Positions 2,362-52,745 of a stretch of DNA of 64,000 nucleotides are shown here, piece by piece (position 1 is the first letter of the stretch; the number at the start of each line of letters is the position of its first letter). The DNA lies in the NCBI GenBank assembly GCA_963699305.1, contig OY969431.1, positions 1,076,911 through 1,140,910 of the forward strand. The letters are read 5' to 3'. Source of the DNA: an uncultured Chloroflexia bacterium (GTDB taxonomy: Bacteria; Chloroflexota; Anaerolineae; Anaerolineales; Anaerolineaceae). The position numbers and the translations under genes are program-made. The notes beneath the pieces are model-generated. The model saw only the letters and a program-made list of their open reading frames with translations. It did no database searches and had not been told where the DNA came from.

Positions 2362-2434
2362 TGGACCCAGAGGGATTCGAACCCTCGGCCTTCTCAATGC
2401 CATTGAGACGCGCTCCCAACTGCGCTATGGGCCC
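2362..2434 (-). tRNA. tRNA-Ala (anticodon GGC)
   Basis: The reverse complement GGGCCCATAGCGCAGTTGGGAGCGCGTCTCAATGGCATTGAGAAGGCCGAGGGTTCGAATCCCTCTGGGTCCA folds as a cloverleaf. The anticodon loop is AUGGCAU and a G3:U70 pair is present. No CCA is encoded. Confidence 0.9.
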
Positions 2435-2468
2435 AAATGCTGTCCTTCGTATACGAGCCTGATACCAG

Positions 2469-2541
2469 TGGACCTGGGGGGATTCGAACCCCCGGCCTCT
2501 TCAGTGCGATTGAAGCGCGCTCCCAACTGCGCTACAGGCCC
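2469..2541 (-). tRNA. tRNA-Ala (anticodon CGC)
   Basis: The reverse complement GGGCCTGTAGCGCAGTTGGGAGCGCGCTTCAATCGCACTGAAGAGGCCGGGGGTTCGAATCCCCCCAGGTCCA folds as a cloverleaf. The anticodon loop is AUCGCAC and G3:U70 is present. No CCA is encoded. Confidence 0.9.
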
Positions 2542-2557
2542 GTGATAGGATAGACCG

Positions 2558-2586
2558 ATTGTACCTGATGGCAATATGCCTGTCAA
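2558..2586 (-). promoter_or_regulatory. sigma70-type promoter for the tRNA-Ala genes (and possibly the T-box and leuS)
   Basis: The minus strand reads TTGACA-N17-TACAAT. The -10 element ends about 16 nt upstream of the first tRNA 5' end. Confidence 0.6.
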
Positions 2587-2634
2587 GAATGGTTGTTCAC
2601 ATGGTGATTTTACCTCTACGCACAAATCCATTCC

Positions 2635-2663
2635 TTGACAAGTTCATTTTATTAGGATAGAAT
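2635..2663 (+). promoter_or_regulatory. sigma70-type promoter for the ArsR-family gene
   Basis: TTGACA (2635-2640), a 17-nt spacer, then TAGAAT (2658-2663), about 34 nt upstream of the start at 2697. Confidence 0.6.
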
Positions 2664-2696
2664 CATTTCGATATCTATCTATTTAGTTTTATAGAG

Positions 2697-3299
2697 GTGA
2701 TTATGGAATCTGCTGAATACACAAATAAATTATTGGGTTTTTTTAAAGTTCTGGCTGATGCCAATCGGTTGAAGATCATAGGATTGCTCGCGGTTCGATC
2801 TTACACGGTTGAAGATTTAGCAAAAGCGTTGAACCTTACACCTTCCACAACATCGCACCATCTTTCACGTCTCGCTGATCTTGATCTGGTCACTGCACAA
2901 GCTAAAGGGTATTACAGCATATATTCACTCCAGACCGAAACGCTCGAAACCATGTCGCGGAATCTGCTCGCACGTGAGAATTTGCCTAACCTGATTGCCT
3001 CACAGGCAGGTAATGAGTTTGCTAAAAAGGTGATCAACGAATTCACTTCAGAAGATGAAAGCATTAAAGCATTCCCCGCCCAACGCAAGAAAATGGACGT
3101 CCTGCTTGCCTATATTGCCAGATCCTTTGAGCTTGATAATAAATACTCGGAGAAAATGGTTAATGAAATATTAAAGAAGTACAACGAGGATTTTGCCACC
3201 CTGAGACGAGAACTGATCGATATACAATATATGGGGCGTAAATCGGGCGAATATTGGCTAACTGAGCTGGGATATAATTCCAGCAGGAATTATCGATGA
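2697..3299 (+). CDS. ArsR-family winged-helix regulator with a C-terminal DUF2087-like domain
   Basis: The N-terminus FKVLADANRLKIIGLLAVRSYTVEDLAKALNLTPSTTSHHLSRLADLDLV is a typical ArsR/SmtB HTH. The C-terminal half is of the type usually annotated DUF2087. Confidence 0.75.
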   Translation: MIMESAEYTNKLLGFFKVLADANRLKIIGLLAVRSYTVEDLAKALNLTPSTTSHHLSRLADLDLVTAQAKGYYSIYSLQTETLETMSRNLLARENLPNLIASQAGNEFAKKVINEFTSEDESIKAFPAQRKKMDVLLAYIARSFELDNKYSEKMVNEILKKYNEDFATLRRELIDIQYMGRKSGEYWLTELGYNSSRNYR

Positions 3300-4403
3300 C
3301 AACACAGCACCTTGACCATCTCCATACCCTAATTTCCACTGACAGGCTGGATGCAATTGTACTAAACCCGGGACCCAGCCTGATCCATTTAACAGGGTTG
3401 GGTTTCCATCTCATGGAAAGACCGGTTGTGCTGTTTGTTAAACCCCATCGAACCTCAGCGTTAATTCTTCCCGGTCTTGAAATTCAAAAAGCAAAGGAAG
3501 CGAAAATCCCGCTTGAATTATTTCAATATGGAGATAATCCAGCTTCTTGGCAAAATATCTTCAAGCAGGTTGTTACTGACTTTAAAATTGGCTCGGCAAT
3601 AGTTGGAGTTGAACCTACTCGGATACGCTTCCTGGAATTGAATTTTCTTCAAGGCGTTGCACGGAAAATGAAGTTGGTTTCTGCAGAGACCTCTTTAGTA
3701 GAGATTAGAATTTGCAAGGAAGCTGATGAAATCGAGAACATGCGCAAGGCAGTTAATATTCCGGAAACCGCGTTGCTTGCTGTAATCCCAAAAATTCATG
3801 CAGGTGTTACAGAAAAACACATTGCAGCTGAATTTAACCATTGAGCTTCTCAGGGCAGGTTCGGCTCCCGAAATGCCCTTTAGCCCCATTGTGTCGGGAG
3901 GTCCCCACAGTGCTGATCCACATGCGGAACCATCCGATAGACCCTTGCAGTCCGGTGACATGCTGGTCATTGATTGGGGCGCAGCATACAACGGTTATAT
4001 TTCCGATCTTACCCGTTCGTTTGCAATAGATCAAATTTCCCCGGAATTTGAAAAAATTGGAAAAACAGTAATGGAAGCTAATTTAGCAGCAACCATGATA
4101 ATTAGACCGGGAATTTCAGCAGGGGAAGCCGATGAAGCAGCTCGAAAAGTTATCAGGCAGGCGGGTTATGGTGATTTTTTCACGCACCGGTTGGGTCATG
4201 GGATAGGAAGGGAGCCACATGAATCTCCTTATATCTTCAACGCAAATAAACAAAACCTGAAAACTGGCATGACTTTTACCATCGAACCGGGGGTTTATCT
4301 CGCACAGCAAGGTGGTGTTCGCATCGAAGATAATGTGGTTGTGACTGCTCAAGGTGTGGAAGTATTAAGTTCACTCCCTCGGGAAGTCAGAATCCTGCAT
4401 TAA
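3296..4403 (+). CDS. Xaa-Pro aminopeptidase/dipeptidase (M24B), split by a 1-nt insertion near 3830-3842
   Basis: The first ORF ends ...GVTEKHIAAEFNH*. The next frame continues IELLRAGSAPEMPFSPIVSGGPHSADPHAEPSDRPLQSGDMLVIDWGAAYNGYISDLTRSF...HRLGHGIGREPHE...EPGVY...IEDNVVV, which carries the M24 metal-ligand motifs. Removing one C from the CC at 3838-3839 restores the frame. Confidence 0.85.
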
Positions 4404-4435
4404 TTTACATTCCATAAATAACTACAGGAGTTCCC

Positions 4436-5198
4436 TTGAAATATCCGCTAACCCTTTCTTCTGCAGAACCTTTCTTTCTCCCCGGTGGGAAAACCGGTTG
4501 CCTGGTCATCCATGGATTTACAGGGACGCCTAAAGAAATGCGGTGGCTGGCTGAATACTTAAACAAGAAAGGTTTTACTGTTTTAGGGATTCGGTTGGCA
4601 GCCCACGCCACACAACCCGAGGATATGCTTAGGGTACGTTGGTGGGATTGGGTGGCGAGTGTTGAAGATGGGTTAAAATATCCTTTCAGGCTGCACAAAA
4701 GATCAATTCGTCATTGGGCTATCGATGGGTGGAATTTTATCGTTGATTGCCGCAGCGCATTACAAAGTCAAAGGTGCTGTTGCAATCTCCACACCATATT
4801 CCTTGCCGGCTGATCCCAGACTTAAATTCATCAAATTATTACACTGGTTCCTACCCAAAGCTCCTAAAGGGGAATCGGATTTTATAAATAGGGCTGCTGA
4901 AAAAATCCATGTGGATTACCCCTACTTCCCCACACGCAGTATTATCCAATTGATGGATTTGGTAAAGGAAATGCAAAATTCGATCCCCCTTATTCATGTA
5001 CCTGTTCTATTGGCGCAATCGCACGGGGATAAGGGTATTCCTGGAGAAAGTATGGACACCATTTTCGACAATTTGAAAACTAGGGACAAAACAAAGATTT
5101 GGGTGGAGAATTCTGGGCACGTTGTGATAAGAGAGCCTGATCGCGAGATAGTGTTCAAAGCAGCTGTCGATTTTATCAAACGTGTTTCTAAAAAATAA
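4436..5198 (+). CDS. carboxylesterase / alpha-beta hydrolase (Est30-like), split by a 1-nt insertion near 4682-4683
   Basis: Part one has LVIHGFTGTPKEMRWLAEYL...WWDWVASVEDGLKY. The other frame continues LSGCTKDQFVIGLSMGGILSL (the GxSxG nucleophile elbow) through HGDKG...SGHV. Confidence 0.8.
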
Positions 5199-6343
5199 TG
5201 CAACTAGATTTTATCCTAATTGGAGTTTCCCTTTTTACATGGGGGATTGGTGAAGGATTATTTTATTACTTCATCCCTTTGTCTTTGCAGCAATGGGGTG
5301 CTGATCCATTGTTGATCGGTGCCATTTTTGGTGGTGTTGGAATTGCTATCACGATCGCACAAATTCCCGCAGGTTACATCTCCGATAAAATTGGTCCTCG
5401 CTATATCATGTGGACTTCCTGGGTCATTGGAACGATTGCCGCTTGGATCATGGCTCTTGCCCAATCACTTACCATTTTTGTGGTCGGATTATGGCTGTAC
5501 TATCTTACGGCTTTTGTAATGGCACCCATGAATAATCTAATAACCCAGGTGAGAGGAAGGATGAGGACCGAACGCGCGTTGACTCTCGTTGGAGGATTGT
5601 TCAACCTGGGTGCAATAGCAGGACCAATTATTGGTGGAATGCTTGCGAAAAGATATGGCCTGAATCGCATTTATTTTTTCTCCGCATGCGTTTTTATCCT
5701 TTCAACGATCATCATCTTCTTCATCCGCTCAAAAAATGTGGAACACCTTGGGGAAGAAGCTGGTGAAGTGAATTTGTTTAAGAACCGAAGGTATTTGGCA
5801 TTCCTGGCGATCTCATTTTTCACAATTATGATGCTGTACTTCCCACAGCCCCTGACTCCAAATTATTTACAAAACTTAAAGTCACTTAATTTGGATACGA
5901 TCGGTCTCCTGGGAACAATCGGCAATCTTGGTAATGCTTTTGCAACACTGGTCCTTGGTAGTCTATCTGCCACAGCAGGACTATTGGTTGGTCAGGTCAT
6001 GGTGATCCTCTTTTCTCTAGCAATGTGGCATGGTGACCAGACTTGGGTATTCGGTCTTGGTTATTTCCTTTTGGGCGGTTATCGGCTGATGCGGGCGATG
6101 GTGGTATCCATTACTCGTTCTTTTGTCAGAGCCAGGCAGGTGGGTTTGGCATTCGGTATCCTGGAGACTGTGACGGGTTGTGCGATCATGCTTGCCCCCA
6201 TCATGGCAGGTTGGTTTTATGTAAAAGATCCTAACTCAATCTATCCAATCAGTATGGCGTTCCTTGCCTTAACAATAATTGTCAATTTGATATTCCTTAG
6301 AAATCTTCATATCAAAATGAAATTGGCGGGCATTGAACGATGA
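5198..6343 (+). CDS. MFS transporter
   Basis: A 381-aa protein with about 12 hydrophobic segments and an MFS-like loop (GYISDKIGPRY). Confidence 0.7.
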   Translation: MQLDFILIGVSLFTWGIGEGLFYYFIPLSLQQWGADPLLIGAIFGGVGIAITIAQIPAGYISDKIGPRYIMWTSWVIGTIAAWIMALAQSLTIFVVGLWLYYLTAFVMAPMNNLITQVRGRMRTERALTLVGGLFNLGAIAGPIIGGMLAKRYGLNRIYFFSACVFILSTIIIFFIRSKNVEHLGEEAGEVNLFKNRRYLAFLAISFFTIMMLYFPQPLTPNYLQNLKSLNLDTIGLLGTIGNLGNAFATLVLGSLSATAGLLVGQVMVILFSLAMWHGDQTWVFGLGYFLLGGYRLMRAMVVSITRSFVRARQVGLAFGILETVTGCAIMLAPIMAGWFYVKDPNSIYPISMAFLALTIIVNLIFLRNLHIKMKLAGIER

Positions 6344-6975
6344 GTCTGGCTTTTCATTCCTTCACGCTTGGACCTTTGGATAACAACACCTACCTCCTTG
6401 AAGATACCTCGACCAAAGAATGTGTTGTCATCGATCCAACATATGAGATAGAAAATGTTTTGGATGACATCCTCAAGAATAAACGGATCTTGAAATCGCT
6501 GTGGATTACACACGCTCATTTTGACCACATCATTGGTGTTTCTCAATTATGGGAAAAGGTTAATCCTCGTCCAAACATTTGCCTTCATCAATCCGACCTT
6601 GATTCCTGGCTTTCAGATGGCGGCGCGAGAGAGTTCAACCTGCATTTTTCTCTTCCAATGCGACCCGATTGTTTTATTGTCGACAAACAAAAACTGTCGG
6701 TTGGAAATCACCAATTTGAAGTGCGACATACACCCGGTCACTCGCCAGGACATGTCATATTCTATTCATCAAATATAAATGCGATCTTTTCCGGAGATCT
6801 CATCTTCTACCACTCCATCGGTCGAACGGATCTGCCAGGTGGAGATCAGAAATCAATATTGGAGAGTATTCATAACCAGATACTAACGCTTCCCGATGAT
6901 ACCCGTATTCTTTCAGGGCATGGATTGGAAACCACCGTTGGAGAGGAAAGGGAAAGCAATCCCTTCCTGAATTAA
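6340..6975 (+). CDS. MBL-fold metallo-hydrolase (glyoxalase II-like)
   Basis: HAHFDH motif (WITHAHFDHIIG), then HTPGHSPGH and GDLIF...GRTDLPGG. The start overlaps the upstream stop (ATGA). Confidence 0.85.
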   Translation: MSLAFHSFTLGPLDNNTYLLEDTSTKECVVIDPTYEIENVLDDILKNKRILKSLWITHAHFDHIIGVSQLWEKVNPRPNICLHQSDLDSWLSDGGAREFNLHFSLPMRPDCFIVDKQKLSVGNHQFEVRHTPGHSPGHVIFYSSNINAIFSGDLIFYHSIGRTDLPGGDQKSILESIHNQILTLPDDTRILSGHGLETTVGEERESNPFLN

Positions 6976-7005
6976 AAACGAGATGGCTTTCGCCATCTCG
7001 TTTTT
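6974..7005. terminator. bidirectional intrinsic terminator between the convergent MBL hydrolase and rny genes
   Basis: AAAAA-CGAGATGGC-tttc-GCCATCTCG-TTTTT: a perfect 9-bp stem flanked by A and T tracts. Confidence 0.8.
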
Positions 7006-7007
7006 AA

Positions 7008-8537
7008 TTACTTTGCGAATTCTATCGCCCGGGTTTCCCGGATGACGGTGACTTTAATCTGCCCTGGATACTGCATGGTCTCTTCAATCTGCTTGGCGAT
7101 ATCCCGAGATAGTTTCGTGGCTGCAAGATCATCCAACTCTTCAGGTCGTACGATGATGCGGACTTCGCGTCCAGCCTGGATGGCGTATGTCTGTGCAACA
7201 CCCTTGAAAGAATTGGCGATATCCTCTAGCGCTTTCAATCTCTTTATATATTGCTCCAGATCTTCACGGCGAGCGCCGGGTCGAGCACCAGAAATTGCAT
7301 CGGCTGATTCAACAATAATTGCTTCCACGGATTCCTGTTCCGTCTCGTGATGATGGGAGGCAATTGCATTGACAACCTTGGGATTCACTCCGTGGCGCTT
7401 GGCAAAATCCGATCCGATCGTGGCATGAGTGCCATCCGTGTTGTAATCCATGGCTTTCCCAAGATCATGCAGCAGCCCACCTGCTTTGGCTACTTCCACA
7501 TCAGCACCTAGTTCTGCTGCAAGTAAAGATGAAAGTTTGGAGACTTCCACAGCATGGCTGAGTTGGTTTTGTCCATAGGAAGTACGGAATCTCAGACGCC
7601 CAAGCATCTTAATGACTTCCGGATGCAGACCCGCGACACCCGCTTCATAGACAGCCTGTTCCCCAGCCTCCAAAATGTCACGATCTACACCACGTTGTTC
7701 TTCGCCGAGAATTTTTTCAATATGCGCTGGATGGATGCGTCCATCCTGTATCAATTTTTCCAATGTGCGTTTGGCAATTTCCCGCCGTACGGGGTCGAAA
7801 CATGAAACTGTCACAGCCTCGGGAGTATCATCGACTATTACGTCAACACCGGCAGCCTGCTCAAAAGCACGGATATTTCTTCCGTTTCGTCCAACGATTC
7901 GACCTTTCATTTCATCATTTGGAAGCAAGACGACGGAAGTTGAGACTTCAGCCACATGGTCAGAAGCGACTCGCTGGATAGCAGTTGCAATTAATTCACG
8001 GGCACGTTTCTCGCCCTCCTGCCGGGCCTCTGTTTCCACCTGTCGAATGATGCGTGCCATATCCGCGCGAGCGTCTTTTTCCGCAGCAGCGAGAACGAGC
8101 GTACGAGCTTCTTCCACACTTAATTCCCCAATACGTTGCAATTCGGTAATTTGCTGTTGATATAGCTTTTCAACCTCATTTGCCCGTTTATCAAGTGCAC
8201 TTTGGCGTTTACTGAGAACTTGTTCGCGTTGTTCCAGTTTCTCAAAACGTGTATCCAAATCGGTGCGACGACGCTGCAGGCGTTCTTCTTCCTTGGTCAT
8301 TTCAGTTCGGATTTTTCCGGTTTCTGCTTCAGTTTCCTGCATTACCTTCAAAGCCTTATCCCGCGCCTCCAATTCGATGACCCTGGCTTTTTCTGTGGCA
8401 TCGTTTGCCATTTGTTCAGCTTTGTGTTTCTGTGATTTGATAATCCGGCTGATCAATATCATAGCAACCACGGTTATCACAATTAGTGTGATGACGATGC
8501 TCAAAATAAAAATTAAACTATTCGGTATTTTGTCCAT
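7008..8537 (-). CDS. rny: ribonuclease Y
   Basis: An N-terminal TM helix, a long coiled-coil, a KH domain (GRIVGRNGRNIRAFE) and an HD domain (LLHDLGKA...ASHH). Confidence 0.95.
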   Translation of the reverse strand: MDKIPNSLIFILSIVITLIVITVVAMILISRIIKSQKHKAEQMANDATEKARVIELEARDKALKVMQETEAETGKIRTEMTKEEERLQRRRTDLDTRFEKLEQREQVLSKRQSALDKRANEVEKLYQQQITELQRIGELSVEEARTLVLAAAEKDARADMARIIRQVETEARQEGEKRARELIATAIQRVASDHVAEVSTSVVLLPNDEMKGRIVGRNGRNIRAFEQAAGVDVIVDDTPEAVTVSCFDPVRREIAKRTLEKLIQDGRIHPAHIEKILGEEQRGVDRDILEAGEQAVYEAGVAGLHPEVIKMLGRLRFRTSYGQNQLSHAVEVSKLSSLLAAELGADVEVAKAGGLLHDLGKAMDYNTDGTHATIGSDFAKRHGVNPKVVNAIASHHHETEQESVEAIIVESADAISGARPGARREDLEQYIKRLKALEDIANSFKGVAQTYAIQAGREVRIIVRPEELDDLAATKLSRDIAKQIEETMQYPGQIKVTVIRETRAIEFAK

Positions 8538-35874: not shown

Positions 35875-37050
35875 TTATTTATCCTGCAGGGCAGCAAGTC
35901 CGGGTAATACCAACCCTTCCAGCATTTCAAGCGAAGCTCCACCACCTGTCGAAATATGAGTGATTTTGTCCGCCACGCCCGATTGCTGTACGGCTGAAAC
36001 TGAGTCACCGCCGCCGATGACCGTGATAGCGCCGCAATCAGCAACTGCTTTGGCAATTGCGAAAGTACCTTCTGCAAATTTGGGCATTTCAAACACACCC
36101 ATGGGTCCATTCCAGATGACCGTGCCGGCATTCTTCACGACCTTGGAGAATTTGGAAATGGTTTCCGGACCAATATCCAGGATCCTCCACCCTTCTGGAA
36201 TTGCACCAACCGGGATGATCTTACTATTGGCAGCCGGATCGAATTTATCGGCAATCACCACATCCACAGGCAAATAGAGTTTTGATCCGCCCATTGCTAA
36301 AACTTCCTTGGCAGTGGGTAGAGCTTCATCTTCCACAAGTGAATCCGCTACAGGATATCCTTGTGCCTTGAAAAAGGTGTTTGCCATGCCGCCACCGATG
36401 AGTACACTATCAGCCTTGGATAACAGATTCTTGATGACACCAATCTTGTCACTAATCTTAGCACCACCCAGGATAGCCACAAACGGACGCTTCGGGTTGT
36501 CAATAGTCTCACCGAGATATTTAATTTCTTTTTCCATCAAAAAGCCCGCTACTCCGGGTAAAATCTTTGCAACACCTTCTGTGGATGCGTGTGCCCGATG
36601 GGCAGTTCCGAATGCATCGTTCACATACACATCTGCCAGGCTTGCCAGTTGCTTTGCCATGCCCGCATCATTCTTTTCTTCCTCAGGATGAAAACGAGTA
36701 TTCTCGAGGACTAGGATTTCACCTGGTTTAAGCATCTTGGAAGCTTCTTCAGCCTTCGGACCAATGCAGTCTTCCGCAAATTTAACGGGTTTGCCTAGAA
36801 GCTTTGCAAGATGTTCTGCTACGGGTTTCAAAGAGAATTCAAGATCTGCAGCTGTTTTAGGGCGTCCGAGATGGGAACACAAGATGACTGCTGCACCTTC
36901 TTTGAGCAAATACTCGATCGTGGGTATTGCACCCTTGATGCGGGTATCGTCTTTTATTTTTCCTTCCTTGATGGGTACATTGAAGTCTACACGGACAAGG
37001 ACTTTCTTTCCTTTCACATCAATATCCCTGATTGTCTTTTTATTGAACAT
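35875..37050 (-). CDS. pgk: phosphoglycerate kinase
   Basis: [21 protein letters not shown] and STGGGASLE motifs. I preferred the ATG at 37050, which has GGGAG upstream, over the TTG at 37062. Confidence 0.95.
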
Positions 37051-37080
37051 ATTATCTCCCAAAAGTATATTAGTTATAAA

Positions 37081-37124
37081 AGATGCGCACTTTTATCGTT
37101 TGAAGGATAAAAACGTGCGCATCT
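37081..37124 (-). terminator. stem-loop between gap and pgk (possible attenuator or processing site)
   Basis: 10-bp inverted repeat AGATGCGCAC...GTGCGCATCT with a 24-nt loop, followed by UUUAUAA on the minus strand. The loop is large for a canonical terminator. Confidence 0.3.
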
Positions 37125-37141
37125 CTTATTACTCTGAAAAT

Positions 37142-38197
37142 TTAAAGTTTTGAAGCGATGAGGTCCGCCAGGTCAGCTGTGCGGCAGGAGTAACCCCATT
37201 CATTGTCGTACCAGGCTACCACCTTCACTAGATTGCCGCCCATCACTACATTGGTCGGTAGATCCACGATCGATGAGCGTTCGTCACCTTTGAAATCGGT
37301 GGAAACCATCGGGTCGTTGTACTCACCCTTGGTGACGCCGAGGATACCTTTCATGGGTCCTTCGGAAGCCTTGATGAAAGCTGCGTTCAATTCTTCCTTG
37401 GTTGTGGCTTTCTCAACCGTGGCGGTCAAGTCCACGACAGACACGGTGGGGGTTGGGACGCGCATGGCGAAACCGTCGAACTTGCCCTTGAGTTCCGGGA
37501 TGACTAACGAAATGGCCTTGGCAGCTCCGGTTGTGGTGGGAATCAAGTTCAAGCCGGCAGCTCGAGAGCGGCGCATTTCCTTCTTGTGACCCTGGTCGAG
37601 GATGACCTGGTCATTCGTATAGGAGTGGATTGTGGTCATCACGGCGTGCACGATTTTGAAATTATCATTCAAAACTTTTGCAGCAGGAGCCAGGCAGTTC
37701 GTGGTGCAGGATGCATTGGAGATTACATGATGCTTGTCGGGGTCGTACTTAGTCTCATTGACTCCGAGTACAACGGTGAAGTCCTCATTCTTGGCGGGAG
37801 CGGTGATGATAACTTTCTTGGCACCACCTTTTTGAATATGGACATTGGCACCAGCTTTGCCTTTCGCAGGATCGCCGATGGCATCCGTGAAAATCCCGGT
37901 GGATTCGATGACGATCTCCACGCCAAGTTCCTTCCATTTCAAATTGGCGGGGTCTTTCTCCGCGAAAACTTTAATGTGCTTGCCATCAACTACGATGTCA
38001 TTATCAATGACTTCCACATTTTTCTTCCATATACCATATGTGGAATCATACTTTAATAGTTGAGCATTCTGCTTGGCGTCGAACAGATCATTGACAGCTA
38101 CCACTTCCAATGAATCAGGGTGGCGCTCGGCGATCGTTTTAAAAACCAGCCGTCCGATCCGGCCGAAACCATTGATACCAACTTTCACTTTCTTCAT
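37142..38197 (-). CDS. gap: glyceraldehyde-3-phosphate dehydrogenase (type I)
   Basis: [10 protein letters not shown], the [12 protein letters not shown] active site and WYDNEWGYS. Confidence 0.95.
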
Positions 38198-39654: not shown

Positions 39655-40395
39655 TTACGCTCTGGTCAACCTCATCGTATAACGATAGCGGTCTCCGCGG
39701 TACAAGATTTTTACAAACTCCACAGCTTTCCGCTCCTGTGACCAAAGCACCCGTTCATTTAGCAATAAGGGAGCTCCAATCTTCACCTGCAAAAGGTCGG
39801 CTTCTTCCTTTGTTGCCAACGTTACTTCGAGTGTTTCGTCTGCCGCCCAAGGGATGATGTGAAGTTTCTCCTGAAGGATTTTGTATAAAGACCCGGCATT
39901 TTCCAATTCCGTTTGAGTGATTATTTGGTCCGGTCGCAAAATAACATATGAAGTTTGCAGTCCAATTGGCAGATCATCACCCAGGCGCACTCTCAGGATC
40001 TTTAATGCTTTTGTGCCTGCGGATAATTCCAACTTTTTCAAGACATCTGCAGGCGCATCTTCATACGCCATTTCAAGAATTTGTTGACCTGGTTTGATTC
40101 CGCGTTTGATAAGATCTTCCGAAAAGCTAGTCAGTTCCAGCAACCCTTTTTGCAACTTCTGTGGCATGACAAAGGTCCCTCGCCCATGCTCGCGGTATAA
40201 GTACCCCTCATGAATCAATAACTCGATGGCTTGCCGAATGGTTGGGCGGCTGACTTGATAAAGCGTTTCCAATTGCCGTTCGGATGGGATGGGTGATTGA
40301 GGTGGCCATTCCCTTTTGGTTATTTTTTGGCGCAAAATATTCGCCAATTGGTGATATTTCGGCATTGCATAATATGGATCAATCATGCTTGACAT
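39655..40395 (-). CDS. GntR-family transcriptional regulator (HutC subfamily, UTRA effector domain)
   Basis: An N-terminal wHTH (PSERQLETLYQVSRPTIRQAIELLIHEGYLYREHGRGTFV) and a UTRA-like C-terminus. It is transcribed divergently from the BMC operon. Confidence 0.85.
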   Translation of the reverse strand: MSSMIDPYYAMPKYHQLANILRQKITKREWPPQSPIPSERQLETLYQVSRPTIRQAIELLIHEGYLYREHGRGTFVMPQKLQKGLLELTSFSEDLIKRGIKPGQQILEMAYEDAPADVLKKLELSAGTKALKILRVRLGDDLPIGLQTSYVILRPDQIITQTELENAGSLYKILQEKLHIIPWAADETLEVTLATKEEADLLQVKIGAPLLLNERVLWSQERKAVEFVKILYRGDRYRYTMRLTRA

Positions 40396-40432
40396 TTCGC
40401 CCTCGGCGTGCTATTATTATGACGTAAAGTCG

Positions 40433-40479
40433 TTATGTGGTCATTACCAGTTATCGTTTAACTTGTTAATACCACATAA
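40433..40479. promoter_or_regulatory. candidate operator: a 9-bp inverted repeat in the gntR / rpiB divergent intergenic region
   Basis: TTATGTGGT (40433-40441) and ACCACATAA (40471-40479), with a 29-nt spacer. Each arm contains a GT...AC-type core of the kind HutC/GntR proteins bind. Confidence 0.3.
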
Positions 40480-40512
40480 ATAGTGTAGCACTTTTCAACA
40501 GGAAAAAGCAAG

Positions 40513-41097
40513 ATGTCATCTGTCTCTGATCCAGAAATCCGAGCAATCGTTCAAAATGTCCTCCAAAAGATGGGGGGTTCGCCTTCCATGGCTTCCACTA
40601 ACCCAACGAAGGAACCGCAGGCATTTTCCTTACCTGTTCTGCAAAAGATGATCGCCATCGGTTCGGATCACGGTGGATTTGCTTTGAAAGAATTGTTAAA
40701 ACCATATATCGTCGAATTGGGATTTCAATACACCGACTGTGGACCGATGGATAAGACTGCGGTGGATTATCCCGACTATGCATTGGCTGTGGCACAGCAA
40801 ATTACGTCCAAAAAAGCGATCCGCGGGATCATGATCGATGGTGCGGGAATCGGTTCTTGTATGGTTGCCAATAAAGTACCTGGAATCCGGGCGGCTCTGT
40901 GCTATGACATCTCTACTGCAATAAACAGCCGAGAGCATAACGATGCCAACCTTCTCACCCTCGGTGCCGGATTGATCGGCGAGAACCTTGCCAAGCAGAT
41001 TGTCAAAACATGGTTGTCGACGGATTTCGGTGGTGGTCGGCATGCTAAACGTGTCGATAAAATCATAACGATAGAAAAACAATTCCTTAAGGGATAG
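40513..41097 (+). CDS. rpiB: ribose-5-phosphate isomerase B (RpiB/LacAB family) with an N-terminal encapsulation-peptide-like extension of about 45 aa
   Basis: The core is [20 protein letters not shown]...DCGP...VDYPDYA...[26 protein letters not shown]...[13 protein letters not shown]. The extension is [17 protein letters not shown] followed by a Pro/Ser/Thr-rich linker. Confidence 0.85.
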
Positions 41098-41105
41098 GAG
41101 CAAAA

Positions 41106-42038
41106 ATGACTCCTGATACAAAAACGGTTGAGACATTAGTTGAGGTTATTACCCGGGAGATTCTAGGTGCTTACAAGGAGCACGACATCCAAGCAGCAAT
41201 CTCCCAGGGATACATGTGCAAACGCGACTGTGCCAGTGGCTTGTGTGCGACAACTTGCTTCAACAAGATTGGACAAGTGGTCAGCGCTGGTGCTGAAAGG
41301 CTTACCTCCACGGTAGGCATGGTCCCTCCCGATCCGAGTCTTGCACACATGATTGATCACACATTGCTTAAGCAGGACACAACCCCAGAGAAGATCACAC
41401 AGCTTTGCATGGAAGCACGTAAATACAACTTCGCCAGTGTATGTATCAATCCGACCTACGTAAAACTATGCGCTGATCTTCTTCGCGGTTCCAATGTGAA
41501 GGTATGTGCTGTCGTCGGATTTCCACTTGGTGCTACCCTCCCCGAAATTAAAGTACTCGAAACAAAAATGGTCATCGAGAACGGTGCACAGGAAGTGGAT
41601 ATGGTTGTAAACATCGGCGCCTTGAAAGCTCGGGATTCCGCTCTCGTAGCGCGTGATATTCGCGGGGTGGTCTCTACTGCTCACTCGATGGGTGCTATCG
41701 TCAAAGTCATCATCGAAGCGTGCTTGTTGAATGATGAAGAAAAAGTATTAGCCTGCTTACTTTCCAAGGAAGCAGGGGCTGATTACGTGAAAACATCAAC
41801 CGGCTTCTCCACAGGCGGTGCTACGCTGCATGATGTTGAATTAATGCGTAAAACGGTAGGCCCTGATATGGGTGTCAAAGCCGCTGGTGGGATCCAGACC
41901 AAGGAAGATGCTGAGAAAATGGTGAAGGCCGGTGCAACACGCATTGGCGCAAGTGCAGGGATAAAGATCATCCAGGCTGCACCAGATGCCCCGGTGTCTC
42001 AACCACAACCAGCCATGGCTGGCGTGAAAAGTTATTAA
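41106..42038 (+). CDS. deoC: deoxyribose-phosphate aldolase with an N-terminal extension of about 80 aa (amphipathic helix plus a 4-Cys motif)
   Basis: The core is [12 protein letters not shown]...[11 protein letters not shown]...[11 protein letters not shown]...[12 protein letters not shown]...[10 protein letters not shown]...[16 protein letters not shown]...GVKAAGGI...[10 protein letters not shown], with the Schiff-base lysine in its usual context. Confidence 0.9.
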
Positions 42039-42050
42039 TCGGAGTATTCC

Positions 42051-42341
42051 ATGTTAATCGCACGCGTGATCGGCACAGTAATTTCAACCATCAAAGACGA
42101 AAAACTAATAGGTCGGAAACTATTGATCGTCCGGCAGACGGACGAAACCGGCAGTCCCGTCGGAAAACCGTATGTGGCAATCGATACAGTGGATGCTGGT
42201 GTAGGTGACTTGGTACTTACTGCTTCTGGATCAAGCGCCCGCCAGACCAACATTACCAAGGATACTCCTGTGGATGCGGTCATTATGGCTATGTTGGATT
42301 CCATGGAAGTGGATGGCAAGGTTGTATTCCGCAAAGAGTAA
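42051..42341 (+). CDS. BMC vertex protein (BMC-P, EutN/CcmL family), copy 1
   Basis: MLIARVIGTVISTIKDEKLIGRKLLIV...VAIDTVDAGVGDLVLTASGSSAR, 96 aa. Confidence 0.85.
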   Translation: MLIARVIGTVISTIKDEKLIGRKLLIVRQTDETGSPVGKPYVAIDTVDAGVGDLVLTASGSSARQTNITKDTPVDAVIMAMLDSMEVDGKVVFRKE

Positions 42342-42363
42342 GAAAAGAATGTAAAGGCACATC

Positions 42364-43809
42364 ATGGATAAGGATTTGCTCTCAATTCAGGAAGCCCGCG
42401 ATCTGGCAACTGCTGCCCGCAATGCCCAACAAGTTTGGGCAAAAGCAAGCCAGTCGCAGGTCGATGCTGTTTGTACTGCCATGGCGGATGCCGCTTATCA
42501 GGCGGCAGAACGGTTGGGGCGAATGGCAACCGATGAAACCGGTTACGGAGTGCCGCTTCACAAAAAACTGAAAAATGAATTCGGGTCCAAAAACGTCTGG
42601 GAAAGCATCCGGAAATTAAAACCGTCGGCGTAATCCACCATGACCCGGAAAAAAGGATCTATGATATTGCATGGCCGGTGGGAGTTGTCTGTGCATTGAC
42701 ACCGAGCACCAACCCAACCTCTACAACGATGTTCAAAATTTTGATTGCTGTAAAAGCAAGGGATGCCATTATTGTTGCCCCCCACCCTTCGGCAGTCAAA
42801 TGCTGCACTGAAACAGCGCTGTTGATGGCGCGTGCCGCTGAAGATGCTGGAGCGCCAAAAGGGTTGATCAGTTGCATGCAAAACGTTTCGTTGCAGGGCA
42901 CGCAGGAATTGATGAACCACAAGTACATCGCCCTTATCCTGGCCACAGGTGGTTCAGCCATGGTGAAGGCTGCTCATTCCGTTGGCAAACCGGCATACGG
43001 CGTGGGACCGGGAAATGTTCCAGTGTATGTGGACCGCAGCGCTGATGTCGAGAAAGCAGCTCGTTATATCGTTGCCTCCAAAGCTTTTGACTACTCCACA
43101 ATCTGCGCCACAGAACAGGCGGTTATCGCAGATACTCCCATGCGCTCAACTTGAAGACTTGATGAAAATCCAGGGTGCATATTTTGTTGATGAAAACCAG
43201 GCAAACCTTTTGCGTAAATCTCTTTTCTTTAACGATGGCGACATCAACCCTGCCACGGTTGGTAAATCACCGCAAGTGCTGGCGGGCATGGCGGGATTTT
43301 CCATCCCTTCAACCGCGCGCATACTCGTTGCCAGATTGAGTAAAGTCGGCAAAGATGAGCCTCTTTCACGGGAAAAGCTGACCACGGTTCTGGGTTGGTA
43401 TGAGACAGATGGTTGGGAAGCAGGTTGTGAACGCTCCATCGAATTAATCCTATTTGGTGGACGCGGACATACCCAAATCATCCATGCAACGGATGAAAAA
43501 GTAATTATGGAATTTGGCTTGGAAAAACCGGTTTTCCGCATCCTAGTCAACACTATGGGCACGTTGGGCGCTATTGGGTTGACTACCGGTATCATGCCTT
43601 CATTGACATTAGGTGCAGGTGGTGTAGGTGGCTCTATCACCGGAGACAACATCACTGCATATCACATGTTCAATGTAAAAAGATTGGCTTACGAACGCAT
43701 CCCTCCACCCTTGGCAGCGTTGAATCCCGGTGAACAAATTTCAAGTGTTTCACCCGTGGAGCTCGAAAAAATTGTTGAAACCGTCGTCAGAGAAATTCTA
43801 AAATCGTGA
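42364..43809 (+). CDS. CoA-acylating aldehyde dehydrogenase (PduP/EutE-like), interrupted by two compensating 1-nt indels near 42608-42622 and 43125-43150
   Basis: Three consecutive ORFs join into one ALDH: LSIQEARDLATAARNAQQVW...; KTVGVIHHDPEKRIYDIAWPVGVVCALTPSTNPTSTTMFK...ATGGSAMVKAAHSVGKPAYGVGPGNVP...STICATEQAVIAD (the catalytic Cys context); then GAYFVDENQ...REKLTTVLGWY...IHATDEK...VNTMGTLGAIG. The C-terminal tail VELEKIVETVVREILKS is an amphipathic helix. Confidence 0.85.
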
Positions 43810-43853
43810 ATAACCACAGATTAGTCGTGGATTAAAAAGAAAGGACAAATAAT

Positions 43854-44180
43854 ATGTCTCCTGAAACTGCTCTAATCGCTCTCGGAATGGTTGAGACCAA
43901 AGGTCTGGTCGGTGCTATCGAAGCTGCCGATGCCATGGTCAAAGCCGCAAACGTCTCCCTGCTTGGCTCGGAATATGTTGGTGGAGGGTACGTTACAGTC
44001 ATGGTGCGCGGCGACGTAGGCGCTGTGAAAGCCGCCACTGATGCAGGCGCTGCTGCCGCAAAACGTGTCGGCGAACTTGTGTCGGTCCACGTCATCCCAC
44101 GACCGCACAGCGAAGTCGAAATGATCCTTCCTGCAGGTTCGAAAGGTCAAATCGGCGGTCGTACCTCAGACAAGAAATAA
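43854..44180 (+). CDS. BMC shell hexamer protein (BMC-H, PduA/EutM/CcmK-type)
   Basis: [77 protein letters not shown] is a canonical BMC domain. Confidence 0.95.
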
Positions 44181-44329
44181 TCGGGTGACATAACATGCCA
44201 GAGAAGGTACTGAACGATTCTTCTCTGGCAATATCCCGACTAGTGGATGCGACCATAAAGGTCGGGAGCCCGATGAATATCTCACTTCTTCCAATCGTCT
44301 TCTGGAAGATGGAAATATAGGAGTGAATC

Positions 44330-44959
44330 ATGGCTGATGAATTTTCATTACGTTGCTATTGTTATTTGGATCGCATGCAGCCCCAGTATGCCGCCTTCGT
44401 CGGGACGGTTACGCAAGGCGATCTCCCCACTGAAGGAATGGCTGCACTGTATGTGGAAATGTCTCCTGGAAATGAAGTTTTCCGTGTGGTCGATATCGCT
44501 GTAAAGGCAACCGAGTCCAAACCTGGTGCCCAAATTGTGGAGCGCGAATTTGGCATGTTCGAAGTGCACTCGCTCAACCAGGCAGCTGTGATTGAAGCAG
44601 GAAACGTTGTGCTGAACCGTTTGGGTCTTAAAGTTCAGGATCGTATCAAACCGCAGGTGGTATCCACCCAAGTCATCACACGGATAGACCCGTATCAATC
44701 GCAGTTGTTGAACCGCTTCCGGCGGGGCAGCATGCTAGTGCCCGGCGAAACCATGCTTGTCTTGGAATGTGCTCCTGCAGCATATATTAATTACGCTTGC
44801 AATGAAGCGGAAAAGAAAGCATCCATCAAAGTCATCCATGTTTCATCTGTAGGTCGCTTTGGTCGTATGTGGCTTTCCGGTTCTGAAGCGGAAATTGTCA
44901 CGGCGAAAAACGCAGCCATCCAGGCCTTAGAAGCATTGGAAGGCAAGCCGGGCGCATGA
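44330..44959 (+). CDS. tandem-domain BMC shell protein (BMC-T)
   Basis: A 209-aa protein with two BMC-like halves: ...YVEMSPGNEVFRVVDIAVKATESKPGAQIVEREFGMFEVH... and ...LVLECAPAAYINYACNEAEKKASIKVIHVSSVGRFGRMWLSGSEAEI... Confidence 0.75.
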   Translation: MADEFSLRCYCYLDRMQPQYAAFVGTVTQGDLPTEGMAALYVEMSPGNEVFRVVDIAVKATESKPGAQIVEREFGMFEVHSLNQAAVIEAGNVVLNRLGLKVQDRIKPQVVSTQVITRIDPYQSQLLNRFRRGSMLVPGETMLVLECAPAAYINYACNEAEKKASIKVIHVSSVGRFGRMWLSGSEAEIVTAKNAAIQALEALEGKPGA

Positions 44960-44986
44960 TGTGGTCTTTTCCCTATTGGAGTAACT

Positions 44987-45337
44987 ATGCCTAAAGAATT
45001 TTTTACCGAACGTGATATCGAAGACATGGTGAAACGTGGAACGACGTCGCTGCAGCTTTCGGATGACATCGTGCTGACAGAGCTCGCATACGAAAAAGCA
45101 CAACGGCTGGGTTTGCAGTTGATCAATCCGAACATCAAACCTCCAGCAGCTCCTGAGCGTCCATATATCTCAACCTTACCTTTTCCTGCATCGAATGCAG
45201 CAATGGCTGCGCCAGTCCCAACGGATCTTCGTCAGCGGATTAAGGATGCAGTTGCAATTAAATTGGGAGTTCAAGTGGATCCTGTCCTGCTGGATTCCAT
45301 CATCACCCGAGTTCTCGAGACCTTGAACAGGAAGTAA
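44987..45337 (+). CDS. hypothetical BMC-associated protein with a C-terminal amphipathic helix
   Basis: A 116-aa protein embedded among the shell genes. It has an N-terminal module of about 45 aa (FTERDIEDMVKRGTTSLQLSDDIVLTELAYEKAQRLGLQL), a Pro/Ala-rich linker and the C-terminal helix DPVLLDSIITRVLETLNRK. Confidence 0.5.
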   Translation: MPKEFFTERDIEDMVKRGTTSLQLSDDIVLTELAYEKAQRLGLQLINPNIKPPAAPERPYISTLPFPASNAAMAAPVPTDLRQRIKDAVAIKLGVQVDPVLLDSIITRVLETLNRK

Positions 45338-45340
45338 CCA

Positions 45341-45661
45341 ATGTTATTAGGCCGCGTCAAGGGCACCGCTATTAGCACCATGAAATATCCGGGTATGGAA
45401 GGTCTGAAGTTGCTCATCGTCCAGCCGTTGAACAAGAAACTGGAACCGATTGGCGAGTATCAGGTCGCTGCTGATATCGTTGATGCTGGGATGGACGATT
45501 TGTGTGTGATGGTACGCTCGCGTGAAGCAGCACTGGCGTTGCCGGATCTCAAATTCGTTCCCGTGGACTTAACCCTCGTGGGAATCGTTGACCAGCTGGA
45601 AGTTCGCCCGGATGGTGAATTTGATTTCACCCTAAAACCAGGATGGGTTAAATACACATAG
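45341..45661 (+). CDS. BMC vertex protein (BMC-P, EutN/CcmL family), copy 2
   Basis: MLLGRVKGTAISTMKYPGMEGLKLLIVQPL...VAADIVDAGMDDLCVMVRSREAA. Confidence 0.85.
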   Translation: MLLGRVKGTAISTMKYPGMEGLKLLIVQPLNKKLEPIGEYQVAADIVDAGMDDLCVMVRSREAALALPDLKFVPVDLTLVGIVDQLEVRPDGEFDFTLKPGWVKYT

Positions 45662-45704
45662 GTTGTTTGTCAAAGGATTCGATGATCGAAAGGATACACT
45701 CGAA

Positions 45705-45983
45705 ATGATCCTCGGAAAGATCGTCGGTACGGTTGTTACCACCATCAGTCATCCTCATTATAAGAACAGGCGATTGCTGGTTGTTCAGCCATTGATCATG
45801 CCCGGTGAAAAATCCGACGATGATTTTATTGCCATCGATAATACGCATGCTGGCATTGGCGATACCGTGCTGGTCAATCGGGAGGGTAATGGTGCCCGTC
45901 AAGTATTAATAAATCCGGATGCTTGTATTATTTCAGTCATCGTAGGTATTGTCGATTCGGTGAATATTCCTTCATCTTCGTAA
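45705..45983 (+). CDS. BMC vertex protein (BMC-P, EutN/CcmL family), copy 3
   Basis: MILGKIVGTVVTTISHPHYKNRRLLVVQPL...IAIDNTHAGIGDTVLVNREGNGAR. I preferred the ATG at 45705 over the TTG at 45663. Confidence 0.85.
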   Translation: MILGKIVGTVVTTISHPHYKNRRLLVVQPLIMPGEKSDDDFIAIDNTHAGIGDTVLVNREGNGARQVLINPDACIISVIVGIVDSVNIPSSS

Positions 45984-46071: not shown

Positions 46072-47001
46072 GTGGAGACTGATATGCGCACTTTGAGATC
46101 TTTTTCCCAACCTACCTCGTCGGATACCTTCAAGGAAGCGGTCGAAAAGATCAAAGCAATGCAATCCCGCGAGATCAATACACATGGCTTTAACCCACAG
46201 CTTAAGACTATTTTTCTTTCTCATGGGAAGAAGACCAAACGTGCTGTTTTGTGGTTGCATGGTTACACATCCGCTACTTTGCAATTTATACGTTTGGCAG
46301 AATTATGTTTTAAGAAAGGATATAACGTTCTTGTCCCATGCATGCCGCACCATGGTTTAAAGGACCGCCTGACACCAGAGATTGGGAAGATGACTGCCAG
46401 GGAACAAAAGCAATTCGTCGAAAATATGGTGGACACCATGCATGGCCTTGGACATGCAGTTGTGGTTGGAGGTCTTTCGATGGGAGGAACCATGACTGCC
46501 TGGATTGCACAGCAGCGCCCGGATGTAGATACAGCCATTATCATTGCTGCAGCATTTGGTTTCAAAGTCATTCCCACATCGTTGACCCGGGTCGCCACCT
46601 TGGCTCTTTTAGCCTTACCAAACATAAGGCAATGGTGGGACGATGAGAAAAAAGAGACTGTGCAGGATCCATGGTATGGTTACCCACATCGTTATACTCG
46701 AAGCTTGGTGCAACTGCTTGATCTTGGCCATCAGGTGCTGAAGTTGGCAAAACATAATCCTCCAGCTGCAAAAAAAGTCTGGGTCGTCATTAATGACCAT
46801 GATGAGGCAGTGGATAATAAAATGCTTCAAAGACTTGCGGATACCTGGCATAATTCGCGTGCAATAAATGCGTCGATTTACCATTTTCCAAATAAGTTGG
46901 GTCTCGATCATGATTGCATCAGCGTCGAGCATTCCAAGGATAATCCCAGGTTCGTCTATCCAGTCCTGATGAAAATGGTTGAAGGTGAGCAAATAAAATA
47001 A
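46072..47001 (+). CDS. alpha/beta hydrolase
   Basis: LWLHGYTS..., the nucleophile elbow GGLSMGG, and a late HD...D...H pattern. A TGCTATACAAT -10-like element about 30 nt upstream suggests it has its own promoter. Confidence 0.7.
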   Translation: METDMRTLRSFSQPTSSDTFKEAVEKIKAMQSREINTHGFNPQLKTIFLSHGKKTKRAVLWLHGYTSATLQFIRLAELCFKKGYNVLVPCMPHHGLKDRLTPEIGKMTAREQKQFVENMVDTMHGLGHAVVVGGLSMGGTMTAWIAQQRPDVDTAIIIAAAFGFKVIPTSLTRVATLALLALPNIRQWWDDEKKETVQDPWYGYPHRYTRSLVQLLDLGHQVLKLAKHNPPAAKKVWVVINDHDEAVDNKMLQRLADTWHNSRAINASIYHFPNKLGLDHDCISVEHSKDNPRFVYPVLMKMVEGEQIK

Positions 47002-51730: not shown

Positions 51731-52745
51731 ATGAAAAATTCATCTTTGGTCCGAATTCTCGGTAAAATCACTCAGCCTTTTTATGGTGGAAGTGGACATA
51801 TCCTGATGTTCCACCGCGTCTGTAATTCCAATACGATTTATCAGATTCCTGGACAGCAAAGTATCGAAGTTTCGATTGAGCATTTTACAGGTATTTTGGA
51901 TTATTTTGAAAAACACGGTTATACCTTCCTCTCGTTGGATGACCTCGCAAAAGATTTACTGCAAGGAAATATCAAGAAACCTTTTGTTGTTTTCACTTTT
52001 GATGATGGTTATATCGATAATTTGGAAATCGCATTTCCGATTCTGAAGAATAGAAACATTCCATTTGCCATTTACGTAGCACCTTCCTTCCCGGATCAAA
52101 AAGCGGTGCTTTGGCGTTATATCCTTCAGGATGCCGTGCGCAACAAGAACTCGCTTAACTTTTCCATTTCTGGCATCCACTATGAAATGGATTTGTCTGA
52201 TTCCCTTGAGCTCCCCCGGAATATTAAACTGCTCCGATCATTCATTAACAACTACCGCACCCACCGATTTCAACAAGCGACTGGAGCAAATATTTGGAAA
52301 GAGTTTACAGCAGATGCTTGAAATGACAGTAAATCTGCGGTTATCTTGGGATCAAATTCGACAGCTTTCTTCAGATCCGCTCGTCACCATAGCCGCGCAT
52401 ACGTTGAACCACTATCCCCTCGCCCAATTGACCGAAGCACAAGCAACTGTAGAGATACTGGAAAGCAAGATGGTTTTGGAATCCAGGATCAATCGAGCTG
52501 TCAACCATTTTGCATACCCCTATGGATCATTTGGAAAACGCGAAATGAGGATTGTGCAGTCTTCTGGTTTTACAACCGCTGTTACCACTCATCATGCCAA
52601 TATCTTCCCTGAACATGCCCGGCAAATGTTCGCCCTTCCTCGATGGGATATCGCAAACATAAACACAATCGACGATATCGAGCTTTCCATGAATGGATTG
52701 CTCCCAGCCCGGTTGAATGGATTCCGGAGAATTGTGACTTTGTGA
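51731..52745 (+). CDS. polysaccharide deacetylase (NodB homology domain), split by a 1-nt insertion near 52258-52266
   Basis: FVVFTFDDGYIDN (the NodB TFDDG motif) is in part one. The other frame carries DFNKRLEQIF...LSWDQIRQLSSDPLVTIAAHTLNHYPL...FAYPYG. Confidence 0.8.

Follow-up and report, generated by a model that had tools for sequence, protein, structure and literature searches.

Do four proteins of one short gene cluster carry terminal amphipathic helices for the same purpose? The question is raised by a bacterial microcompartment (BMC) locus in a 64,000-nucleotide stretch of contig OY969431.1 (assembly GCA_963699305.1) from an uncultured Anaerolineaceae bacterium. The whole stretch is called the window here, and all coordinates are positions in it. 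The operon lies on the plus strand (40513-45983) and, together with a divergent regulator gene, occupies the region 39655-45983. Since its domain content and gene order match SPU6, this region is assigned from its sequence as a typical SPU6-type sugar-phosphate-utilisation (SPU) microcompartment operon of an Anaerolineae bacterium. A preliminary description of the DNA proposed that an RpiB-family protein (RPI), a DeoC-family enzyme (DERA), an acylating aldehyde dehydrogenase (AldDh) and a 116-residue protein all carry helices resembling encapsulation peptides (EPs). The overall explanation that we consider quite likely is an SPU6 operon with three tagged lumen proteins and a EutQ-type adaptor to which the fourth helix belongs. 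By analogy with EutQ, the fourth helix is probably helix H4 of a cupin-less adaptor, binding tags rather than being one.

The four peptides named in the preliminary description were all found verbatim, at the following places:

40528..40578, plus strand: EP helix of RPI (residues 6-22)
41127..41168, plus strand: helix of DERA as quoted in the preliminary description (residues 8-21)
43756..43806, plus strand: C-terminal EP helix of AldDh, VELEKIVETVVREILKS (last 17 residues)
45278..45334, plus strand: terminal helix of the 116-residue protein, DPVLLDSIITRVLETLNRK (peptide as quoted in the preliminary description)

Amphipathicity was measured as the best 14-residue hydrophobic moment, and the window's own long open reading frames (ORFs) served as background. 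The moments were 0.75 for AldDh, 0.73 for the 116-residue protein, 0.66 for DERA and 0.44 for RPI, against a background with a mean of 0.26 and a 99th percentile of 0.62; the PduD and PduP peptides used for comparison in the preliminary description gave 0.73 and 0.39, respectively. Conservation was counted in 61 RPI, 64 DERA and 64 AldDh sequences from related loci. These loci came from a genome scan with the family of the 116-residue protein, which yielded 80 loci out of 273 species genomes encoding a relative, and within the set gathered in this way all tagged homologues of the three enzymes (61-64) lay inside the same microcompartment operon. The hydrophobic positions of the three enzyme helices were conserved at 80-100% in the 61-64 loci, all but one of them at 90% or more. 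The helices thus appear to exceed chance, and the conservation is stronger evidence for this than the moments. Together, the moments and the conservation bear out the proposal that RPI, DERA and AldDh carry amphipathic helices with EP-like periodicity. The three tags share the pattern h-x-x-h-h-x-x-h-h (h, hydrophobic), and they are predicted to target their proteins as cargo.

The clearest case in terms of architecture is RPI, of which the gene and linker are as follows:

40513..41097, plus strand: RPI (RpiB family) with N-terminal EP (PF02502, E 5e-53, residues 47-184; Pfam/NCBIfam domain at residues 46-189)
40579..40647, plus strand: flexible Pro/Ser/Thr/Ala-rich linker of RPI, variable in length (12% mean pairwise identity)

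The residues I9, I12, V13, V16 and L17 were hydrophobic in 90-100% of the 61 loci, and the family-mean hydrophobic moment of the helix was 0.63. The Pro/Ser/Thr-rich linker of the preliminary description is present directly after residue 22, and mean pairwise identity falls from 44% in the helix to 12% in the linker and rises to 73% in the domain. All 22 solved RpiB/LacAB structures align only from residue 37-47 of the window RPI onward, most from 44-47, and the untagged chains 3he8 and 2vvr start at their own residue 2-3 where the alignment begins. The N-terminus of RPI, a 45-residue extension, consequently shows the features of an EP, namely a terminal amphipathic helix and a flexible linker of low conservation, both missing from solved homologues. 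The helix itself is predicted from the periodicity and from a published AlphaFold2 (AF2) model, and a typical N-terminal EP with an unstructured linker has been described for SPU RPI (Dwyer 2024, PMC11585597). Moreover, the pattern of the RPI helix is the same as that of the N-termini of E. coli EutC and EutE, whose EPs (QIEEIVRSVMASMG and DIEQVVKAVLLKM, respectively) have the spacing I-x-x-[IV]-V-x-x-V-[LM]-x-x-M.

The preliminary description also concluded that a pentose-phosphate isomerase is packaged in the shell. At the position of the catalytic Cys of RpiB, an Asp is found in the window (40828-40830, residue 106-109 region, IMIDGAGIG) and in 61/61 of the related loci, all of which (61/61) retain the His. 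An SPU6 RPI with Asp for the catalytic Cys has been tested and had negligible ribose-5-phosphate isomerase activity, yet formed a stable complex with DERA (Dwyer 2024, PMC11585597). The conclusion therefore stands as regards the tag on RPI, but a packaged working isomerase is doubtful because the catalytic Cys is Asp and the published protein was inactive. RPI is probably a pseudo-enzyme or a packaging partner of DERA; most likely it would be bound to DERA and serve packaging instead of isomerising ribose 5-phosphate.

The N-terminal extension of DERA is organised differently:

41106..42038, plus strand: DERA (DeoC), the SPU signature enzyme, with 78-residue N-terminal extension (TIGR00126 deoC, 290.9 bits, residues 79-290)
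41106..41339, plus strand: N-terminal extension of DERA, 78 residues (alignment of 64 loci)
41121-41177, plus strand: amphipathic helix of the extension, about residues 6-24 (70% pairwise identity)
41217-41264, plus strand: Cys-containing segment of the extension, residues 38-53 (59% pairwise identity)

In this helix, V8, L11, V12, V14, I15, I19 and L20 were hydrophobic in 95-100% of the 64 sequences. The conserved and amphipathic helix is followed by segments of 59-72% identity that include invariant Cys residues, with no variable linker, and the conserved segment immediately ahead of the domain reaches 72% pairwise identity. The extension contains the motif CX3CX4CX3C, of which C38 and C51 were invariant in the 64 loci and C42 and C47 were present in 29/64; in most other loci, positions 42 and 47 are V/I and K. 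Judged from its sequence, this motif could be a disulfide, a metal site or an Fe-S site in the published 'two beta-strand' segment. A single-sequence AF2 prediction of DERA had a mean predicted confidence (pLDDT) of 44.9 and was not usable for the structure of the extension. A homology search with DERA residues 1-81 alone returned one candidate only, a stand-alone 81-residue ORF (P0390), and was uninformative on the distribution of the extension. This ORF matches the DERA extension at 51% identity along 98% of its own length, and possibly comes from a DERA gene that mis-annotation or a frameshift has split.

All 37 solved DERA-family chains align from residue 72-89 of the window DERA, most from 75-82. 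The statement that housekeeping RpiB and DeoC have no such extensions was accordingly confirmed against the 22 solved RpiB/LacAB and 37 solved DERA-family chains; because the solved structures align only past them, the 45- and 78-residue extensions are absent from the characterised housekeeping enzymes. Previous work reported that the N-terminal extension of about 70 residues makes the SPU6 DERA insoluble and that the enzyme is active on deoxyribose 5-phosphate (Dwyer 2024, PMC11585597). In the chemistry published for the SPU family, DERA cleaves deoxyribose 5-phosphate and so yields glyceraldehyde 3-phosphate together with acetaldehyde, and AldDh converts acetaldehyde to acetyl-CoA. In the present locus, the DERA cleavage would take place inside the shell and would be followed by the conversion of acetaldehyde to acetyl-CoA by the acylating AldDh.

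The third tag is located at the C-terminus of AldDh:

42364..43809, plus strand: AldDh, type I, EutH_ACDH-like, with interrupted frame (PF00171 on the first two ORF pieces)
43690-43755, plus strand: Pro-rich linker ahead of the C-terminal helix of AldDh (46% identical)

The residues L205, I208, V209, V212, V213 and I216 (numbering of the last ORF piece; spacing i, i+3, i+4, i+7, i+8, i+11) were hydrophobic in 80-100% of the 64 sequences, and the family-mean hydrophobic moment was 0.68. Identity was 84% in the preceding part of the domain, 46% in the linker and 57% in the helix, which is the organisation of a C-terminal EP, and the catalytic Cys was present in 64/64 relatives. The best NCBIfam model for the intact AldDh of a close relative was TIGR02518 (581.7 bits), matched out to the C-terminus, and the PduP/EutE-type model aligned to the same protein only from model position 41, past the region of the N-terminal tag. 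Previous investigations have assigned a C-terminal EP to type I microcompartment AldDh (IPR013357) and an N-terminal EP to type II, and all SPU6 AldDh carry the C-terminal form (Sutter 2021, PMC8217296). The preliminary description was hence right to contrast the C-terminal tag with the N-terminal tags of PduP-type enzymes, but the contrast is no surprise, since it is the known type I/type II split (TIGR02518/IPR013357).

The AldDh gene is read in three ORF pieces, in frame 1 (42364-42633), frame 3 (to 43154) and again frame 1 (to 43809), of which the last has no Pfam match and carries the C-terminal helix; this interruption was overlooked in the preliminary description. An 84%-identical contig (L002) has an intact AldDh gene of 482 residues, relative to which the window is missing 1 bp at 42612 and a further 2 bp at 43142. 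These two frame-disrupting deletions could be taken to mean that the locus is decaying, with AldDh a true pseudogene and the helices relics of a non-working compartment. However, a 99.3%-identical contig from an independent Logan assembly (L001, run ERR10755939) has both bases at 43142 and reads through the second site in frame, and all other genes of the operon are intact. Furthermore, at least two unrelated genes of the window are split in the same way (Creatinase_N/Peptidase_M24, 3296-4403; polysaccharide deacetylase, 51731-52745), and several related loci in large-contig MFD assemblies of metagenome-assembled genomes (MAGs) have fragmented genes, which points to assembly indels. For these reasons the deletions are probable assembly errors, and decay of the locus is highly improbable. 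The frameshifts also serve as a practical warning of indel errors in the source assembly.

The fourth helix belongs to a protein of another kind, whose parts are given below:

44987..45337, plus strand: 116-residue cupin-less protein resembling the EutQ N-terminus (no Pfam/NCBIfam match)
44987-45124, plus strand: N-domain, residues 1-46 (family alignment, AF2)
45140-45166, plus strand: PPAAPxRPY motif, residues 52-60 (invariant P53, A55, P56, R58, P59 and Y60)
45224-45274, plus strand: helix H3, residues 80-96 (AF2)
45281-45331, plus strand: helix H4, residues 99-115 (AF2)

Searches of this protein against Pfam and NCBIfam gave no matches and no enzyme domain. Its family comprises 816 homologues of 115-125 residues, none of them with a Pfam domain, and a library of 1.84 billion proteins, clustered at 50%, contained 483 representatives at E <= 0.001. 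The gene was present in every related locus examined and always lay between the genes for BMC-Tdp and BMC-P wherever flanking DNA was available. The family alignment falls into four parts, namely a conserved N-terminal segment of 46 residues, the PPAAPxRPY motif, some 25 variable residues and a conserved C-terminal segment of 35 residues, in which L101, L102, I105, R108 and V109 are invariant. With the family alignment, AF2 predicted four helices and a disordered H2-H3 linker at a mean pLDDT of 76.6; the N-domain was modelled as a small beta-alpha-beta-beta-alpha-beta unit with a pLDDT of about 88. A search of PDB sequences with the family profile found nothing meaningful, the best E value of 0.043 falling on a Pro-rich stretch.

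A short SPU6 protein (about 130 residues) without a Pfam domain and with EutQ-like homology has been noted previously (Sutter 2021, PMC8217296), and the 116-residue protein answers to this account. EutQ from E. coli K-12 was chosen for comparison because of that remark. The hhalign probability was 72.5% for the family against the single EutQ sequence and 95.2% (E 2.6e-8) against a five-sequence profile of the EutQ N-terminus, with residues 3-111 collinear with EutQ 2-99. The homologue search for the EutQ N-terminus gave mostly near-identical or frameshifted enterobacterial fragments, from which five clean sequences were kept for the profile. The EutQ cupin domain PF06249 was not found by Pfam in the 116-residue protein, which ends where the cupin of EutQ would begin. 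The protein is accordingly not a member of the EutQ family in the Pfam sense; judged from the profile alignment, it is a homologue of the EutQ N-terminal module. It shows both homology to EutQ(1-99) and the layout of that linker module, that is, H1/H2, a flexible linker and H3/H4.

The C-terminal part contains two helices, of which the preliminary description named one. Six relatives (P0151, P0167, P0210, P0246, P0229 and P0253) contain two or three tandem copies of the N-domain, and in P0151, P0167, P0210, P0246 and P0253 the copies are followed by a single H3/H4-like helix pair. From their sequences, these relatives look like multivalent scaffold versions of the protein.

Salmonella EutQ(1-99) consists of the helix pairs H1/H2 and H3/H4 with a flexible region between them; the first pair binds the shell and the second the cargo, with EP contacts at L89, V93, E64, R67 and Q75 (Yang 2025, PMC12487888). 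The same study reported dissociation constants for the EutC EP of 7.60 uM with EutQ(1-99) and 6.35 uM with full-length EutQ (peptide EutC(1-20)), weaker binding of the EutE EP, and a cupin domain that is dispensable for assembly. When residues were counted by hand in the hhalign alignment, L89 and V93 of EutQ fell on the invariant I105 and V109 of the 116-residue protein. Modelled on EutQ, the 46-residue N-domain, perhaps together with PPAAPxRPY, would bind, from the lumen, either the EutM-like BMC-H or the BMC-T, and the H3/H4 pair (residues 80-115) would bind the EP helices of RPI, DERA and AldDh; the protein would thereby tether the cargo core to the shell. PPAAPxRPY could be a linear shell-binding motif. 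We infer all of these binding and targeting steps in SPU6 from the analogy. We give a little better than even chances to the specific proposal that the 116-residue protein serves on its own as a minimal receptor for EPs and as a tether to the shell, being a EutQ linker module freed from the cupin domain.

In the preliminary description, by contrast, the last helix of the 116-residue protein was itself taken for a cargo EP; all four helices would then be cargo EPs, and the protein would be a small fourth cargo drawn in by its C-terminal tag. The helix is indeed terminal, strongly amphipathic (moment 0.73) and placed behind a disordered linker, and it has the hydrophobic pattern of the PduD and EutC EPs. 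EutQ(1-99) alone targets GFP into Eut compartments, by analogy with which the 116-residue protein is almost certainly encapsulated. However, the protein has no enzyme domain and aligns along its whole length with the EutQ linker module, its last helix corresponding to EutQ H4. In EutQ, the equivalent helices bind cargo EPs and the N-terminal helices bind the shell, and EutQ without residues 62-99 stayed at the shell, the reverse of EP behaviour. The claim of a cargo EP on this protein is not retained here, and we consider a fourth-cargo role unlikely.

The mapping of EutQ also bears on a second alternative, in which the terminal helices mainly drive self-association of RPI, DERA and AldDh into a condensate or core and the 116-residue protein co-aggregates as a scaffold in the manner of CcmN or CsoS2, without acting specifically as an EP receptor. 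This would agree with the full-length SPU6 DERA, which is insoluble and becomes soluble once the extension is removed, and with Eut cargo, which aggregates independently of the shell and is liquid-like. The single hydrophobic pattern of the four helices would allow them to bundle together, and the relatives with two or three N-domain repeats look like multivalent scaffolds. Self-association, however, overlaps with the adaptor explanation and is not exclusive of it, and in the Eut system the EutC EP was measured to bind EutQ(1-99) at a defined 1:1 ratio with a micromolar dissociation constant, and separate shell- and cargo-binding regions of EutQ have been mapped. As a replacement for the adaptor, such a scaffold seems decidedly improbable.

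Several points weigh against the explanation by three EPs and a EutQ-type adaptor. Encapsulation peptides in other systems bind shell proteins directly, so an adaptor may be unneeded. The similarity to EutQ is remote (23% identity) and concerns in part amphipathic helices, which are alignable through composition; the EutQ profile was built from five close enterobacterial sequences only, and a Foldseek search of the AF2 model against the PDB gave no match at E <= 0.001. A canonical EP with its flexible linker is shorter than the extension of DERA and less conserved. AldDh is frameshifted in the window itself, and if the deletions are real, the compartment of this strain would be without its core enzyme. 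The hypothetical proteins of SPU6 have been described as having no homology to BMC-related proteins (Dwyer 2024, PMC11585597), and SPU is not mentioned in the study of EutQ (Yang 2025, PMC12487888). The adaptor and its binding of tags in SPU6 are thus predictions drawn from homology.

The remaining genes of the region agree with the SPU6 assignment:

39655..40395, minus strand: GntR/UTRA-type transcriptional regulator, divergent from the operon (NCBIfam GntR-family matches; same position in many related loci)
42051..42341, plus strand: BMC-P (EutN/CcmL) pentamer protein 1 (PF03319, E 1.8e-28)
43854..44180, plus strand: BMC-H hexamer shell protein, closest to EutM (PF00936, E 8.7e-30; NCBIfam EutM, 133 bits)
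44330..44959, plus strand: shell protein BMC-Tdp with tandem domains, similar to CcmP/CsoS1D (match to the CcmP model of NCBIfam, E 2.5e-76)
45341..45661, plus strand: BMC-P pentamer protein 2 (PF03319, E 1e-21)
45705..45983, plus strand: BMC-P pentamer protein 3 (NCBIfam CcmL/EutN match)

The signature enzymes of SPU6 (PF02502 and PF01791) are adjacent, with a gap of 8 nt between the RPI and DERA genes. The shell set consists of one BMC-H, one BMC-Tdp and three BMC-P proteins, and the BMC-Tdp gene of the relatives L001 and L002 has a PF27545 CsoS1D_N match. A GntR regulator has also been described for SPU6 (Dwyer 2024, PMC11585597). The order RpiB, DeoC, BMC-P, AldDh, BMC-H, BMC-T, 116-residue protein, BMC-P, BMC-P was kept in every related locus with enough flanking DNA. 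The mechanical ORF of the third BMC-P begins at TTG 45663, and its likely true start is ATG 45705, 14 codons downstream; the CcmL/EutN match runs from residue 15-16 of the long ORF, the homologues have 89-92 residues, and translation from ATG 45705 begins with MILGKIVG.

Among the 80 related genome loci, 79 belong to Anaerolineae/Chloroflexota MAGs, and the lone exception is a chimeric contig; in the analysis, the taxon of the window was drawn from these relatives alone. This locus (L050), from a 'Promethearchaeota' (Asgard) MAG, was considered as an archaeal or non-compartment occurrence of the 116-residue family and was rejected. Its nucleotides 1-640 (51% GC) contain the C-terminus of an SPU6 BMC-T, the 116-residue homologue and the start of a BMC-P, and nucleotides 641-7893 (33-41% GC) contain archaeal genes including SRP19. 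Directly upstream of the window operon lie the glycolytic genes pgk and gap (35875-38197), and an alpha/beta-hydrolase gene lies directly downstream (46072-47001). Gap and Pgk, which could use the DERA product glyceraldehyde 3-phosphate, were rejected as part of the system, their adjacency being found in 1/45 full-flank loci; the hydrolase occurred in 7 loci and is not a conserved part of the system.

Earlier publications already cover the tags of RPI, DERA and AldDh (Sutter 2021, PMC8217296; Dwyer 2024, PMC11585597). The locus is ordinary and largely known, and the adaptor adds a modest new element to it; this only new element is the link, by analogy, between a conserved small protein of SPU6 and a mechanism lately established for EutQ. 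With this link, a 'hypothetical' protein of SPU6 gains an assignable role as a cupin-less EutQ-type adaptor between shell and cargo. If the role is confirmed, the protein would offer engineers a part of 116 residues with which to load cargo into SPU and HO-like shells and would support EutQ-like linkers as a general principle of metabolosome assembly. Of the natural systems in which a single small adaptor links three proteins with different tags (N-, N- and C-terminal) to the shell, SPU6 would then be the simplest, and the relatives with tandem domains would be multivalent versions of the adaptor, extending EutQ-type linking far beyond ethanolamine compartments.

Compared with known systems, the helices of the window share several properties with the canonical EPs of PduD(1-18), PduP(1-18) and EutC(1-19), namely a terminal amphipathic helix of about 15-20 residues, the h-x-x-h-h-x-x-h-h spacing, a linker of low conservation and the lack of such a peptide in non-compartment homologues. 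They differ in that what follows the DERA helix is a structured, conserved segment instead of a flexible linker and in that the helix of the 116-residue protein is not joined to a cargo enzyme. The window AldDh has the same C-terminal EP as the type I enzymes (IPR013357/TIGR02518) of EUT2, EUT3 and SPU6, whereas the EP of the type II enzymes PduP and EutE is N-terminal. CcmN, CsoS2 and the PduM/PduB N-terminus are likewise small or disordered non-enzymatic bridges between shell and cargo that act via short helical or linear motifs; as no sequence relationship to these carboxysome and Pdu scaffolds was detected, the likeness is one of analogy only.

The closest counterpart of the 116-residue protein is EutQ(1-99) of Salmonella and E. 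coli, with which it shares collinear homology over about 100 residues, a small two-helix N-domain and, behind a disordered linker, a pair of helices at the C-terminus. The hydrophobic EP-contact residues are kept, the motif of the RPI tag is that of EutC and EutE, and the BMC-H is EutM-like. In contrast to EutQ, the protein has no cupin/acetate-kinase domain (PF06249) and hence no C-terminal dimerisation domain, and it contains PPAAPxRPY, which is absent from EutQ. The cargo is also different, being EutBC and EutE in the one case and DERA, RPI and AldDh in the other, and the role of the SPU6 protein is a predicted one. Finally, the SPU6 loci published for Chloroflexi/Anaerolineae (Sutter 2021, PMC8217296; Dwyer, Sutter, Kerfeld 2024, PMC11585597) have an identical gene set and order, including the GntR/UTRA regulator and the short protein without a Pfam domain. 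The N-terminal EP of RPI, the N-terminal extension of about 70-80 residues on DERA, the C-terminal EP of AldDh and the Cys-to-Asp change in RPI are common to both. No essential difference separates the window from these loci; its copy has the frameshifted AldDh, probably an artefact, and a DERA extension with four Cys, whereas about half of the relatives have two.

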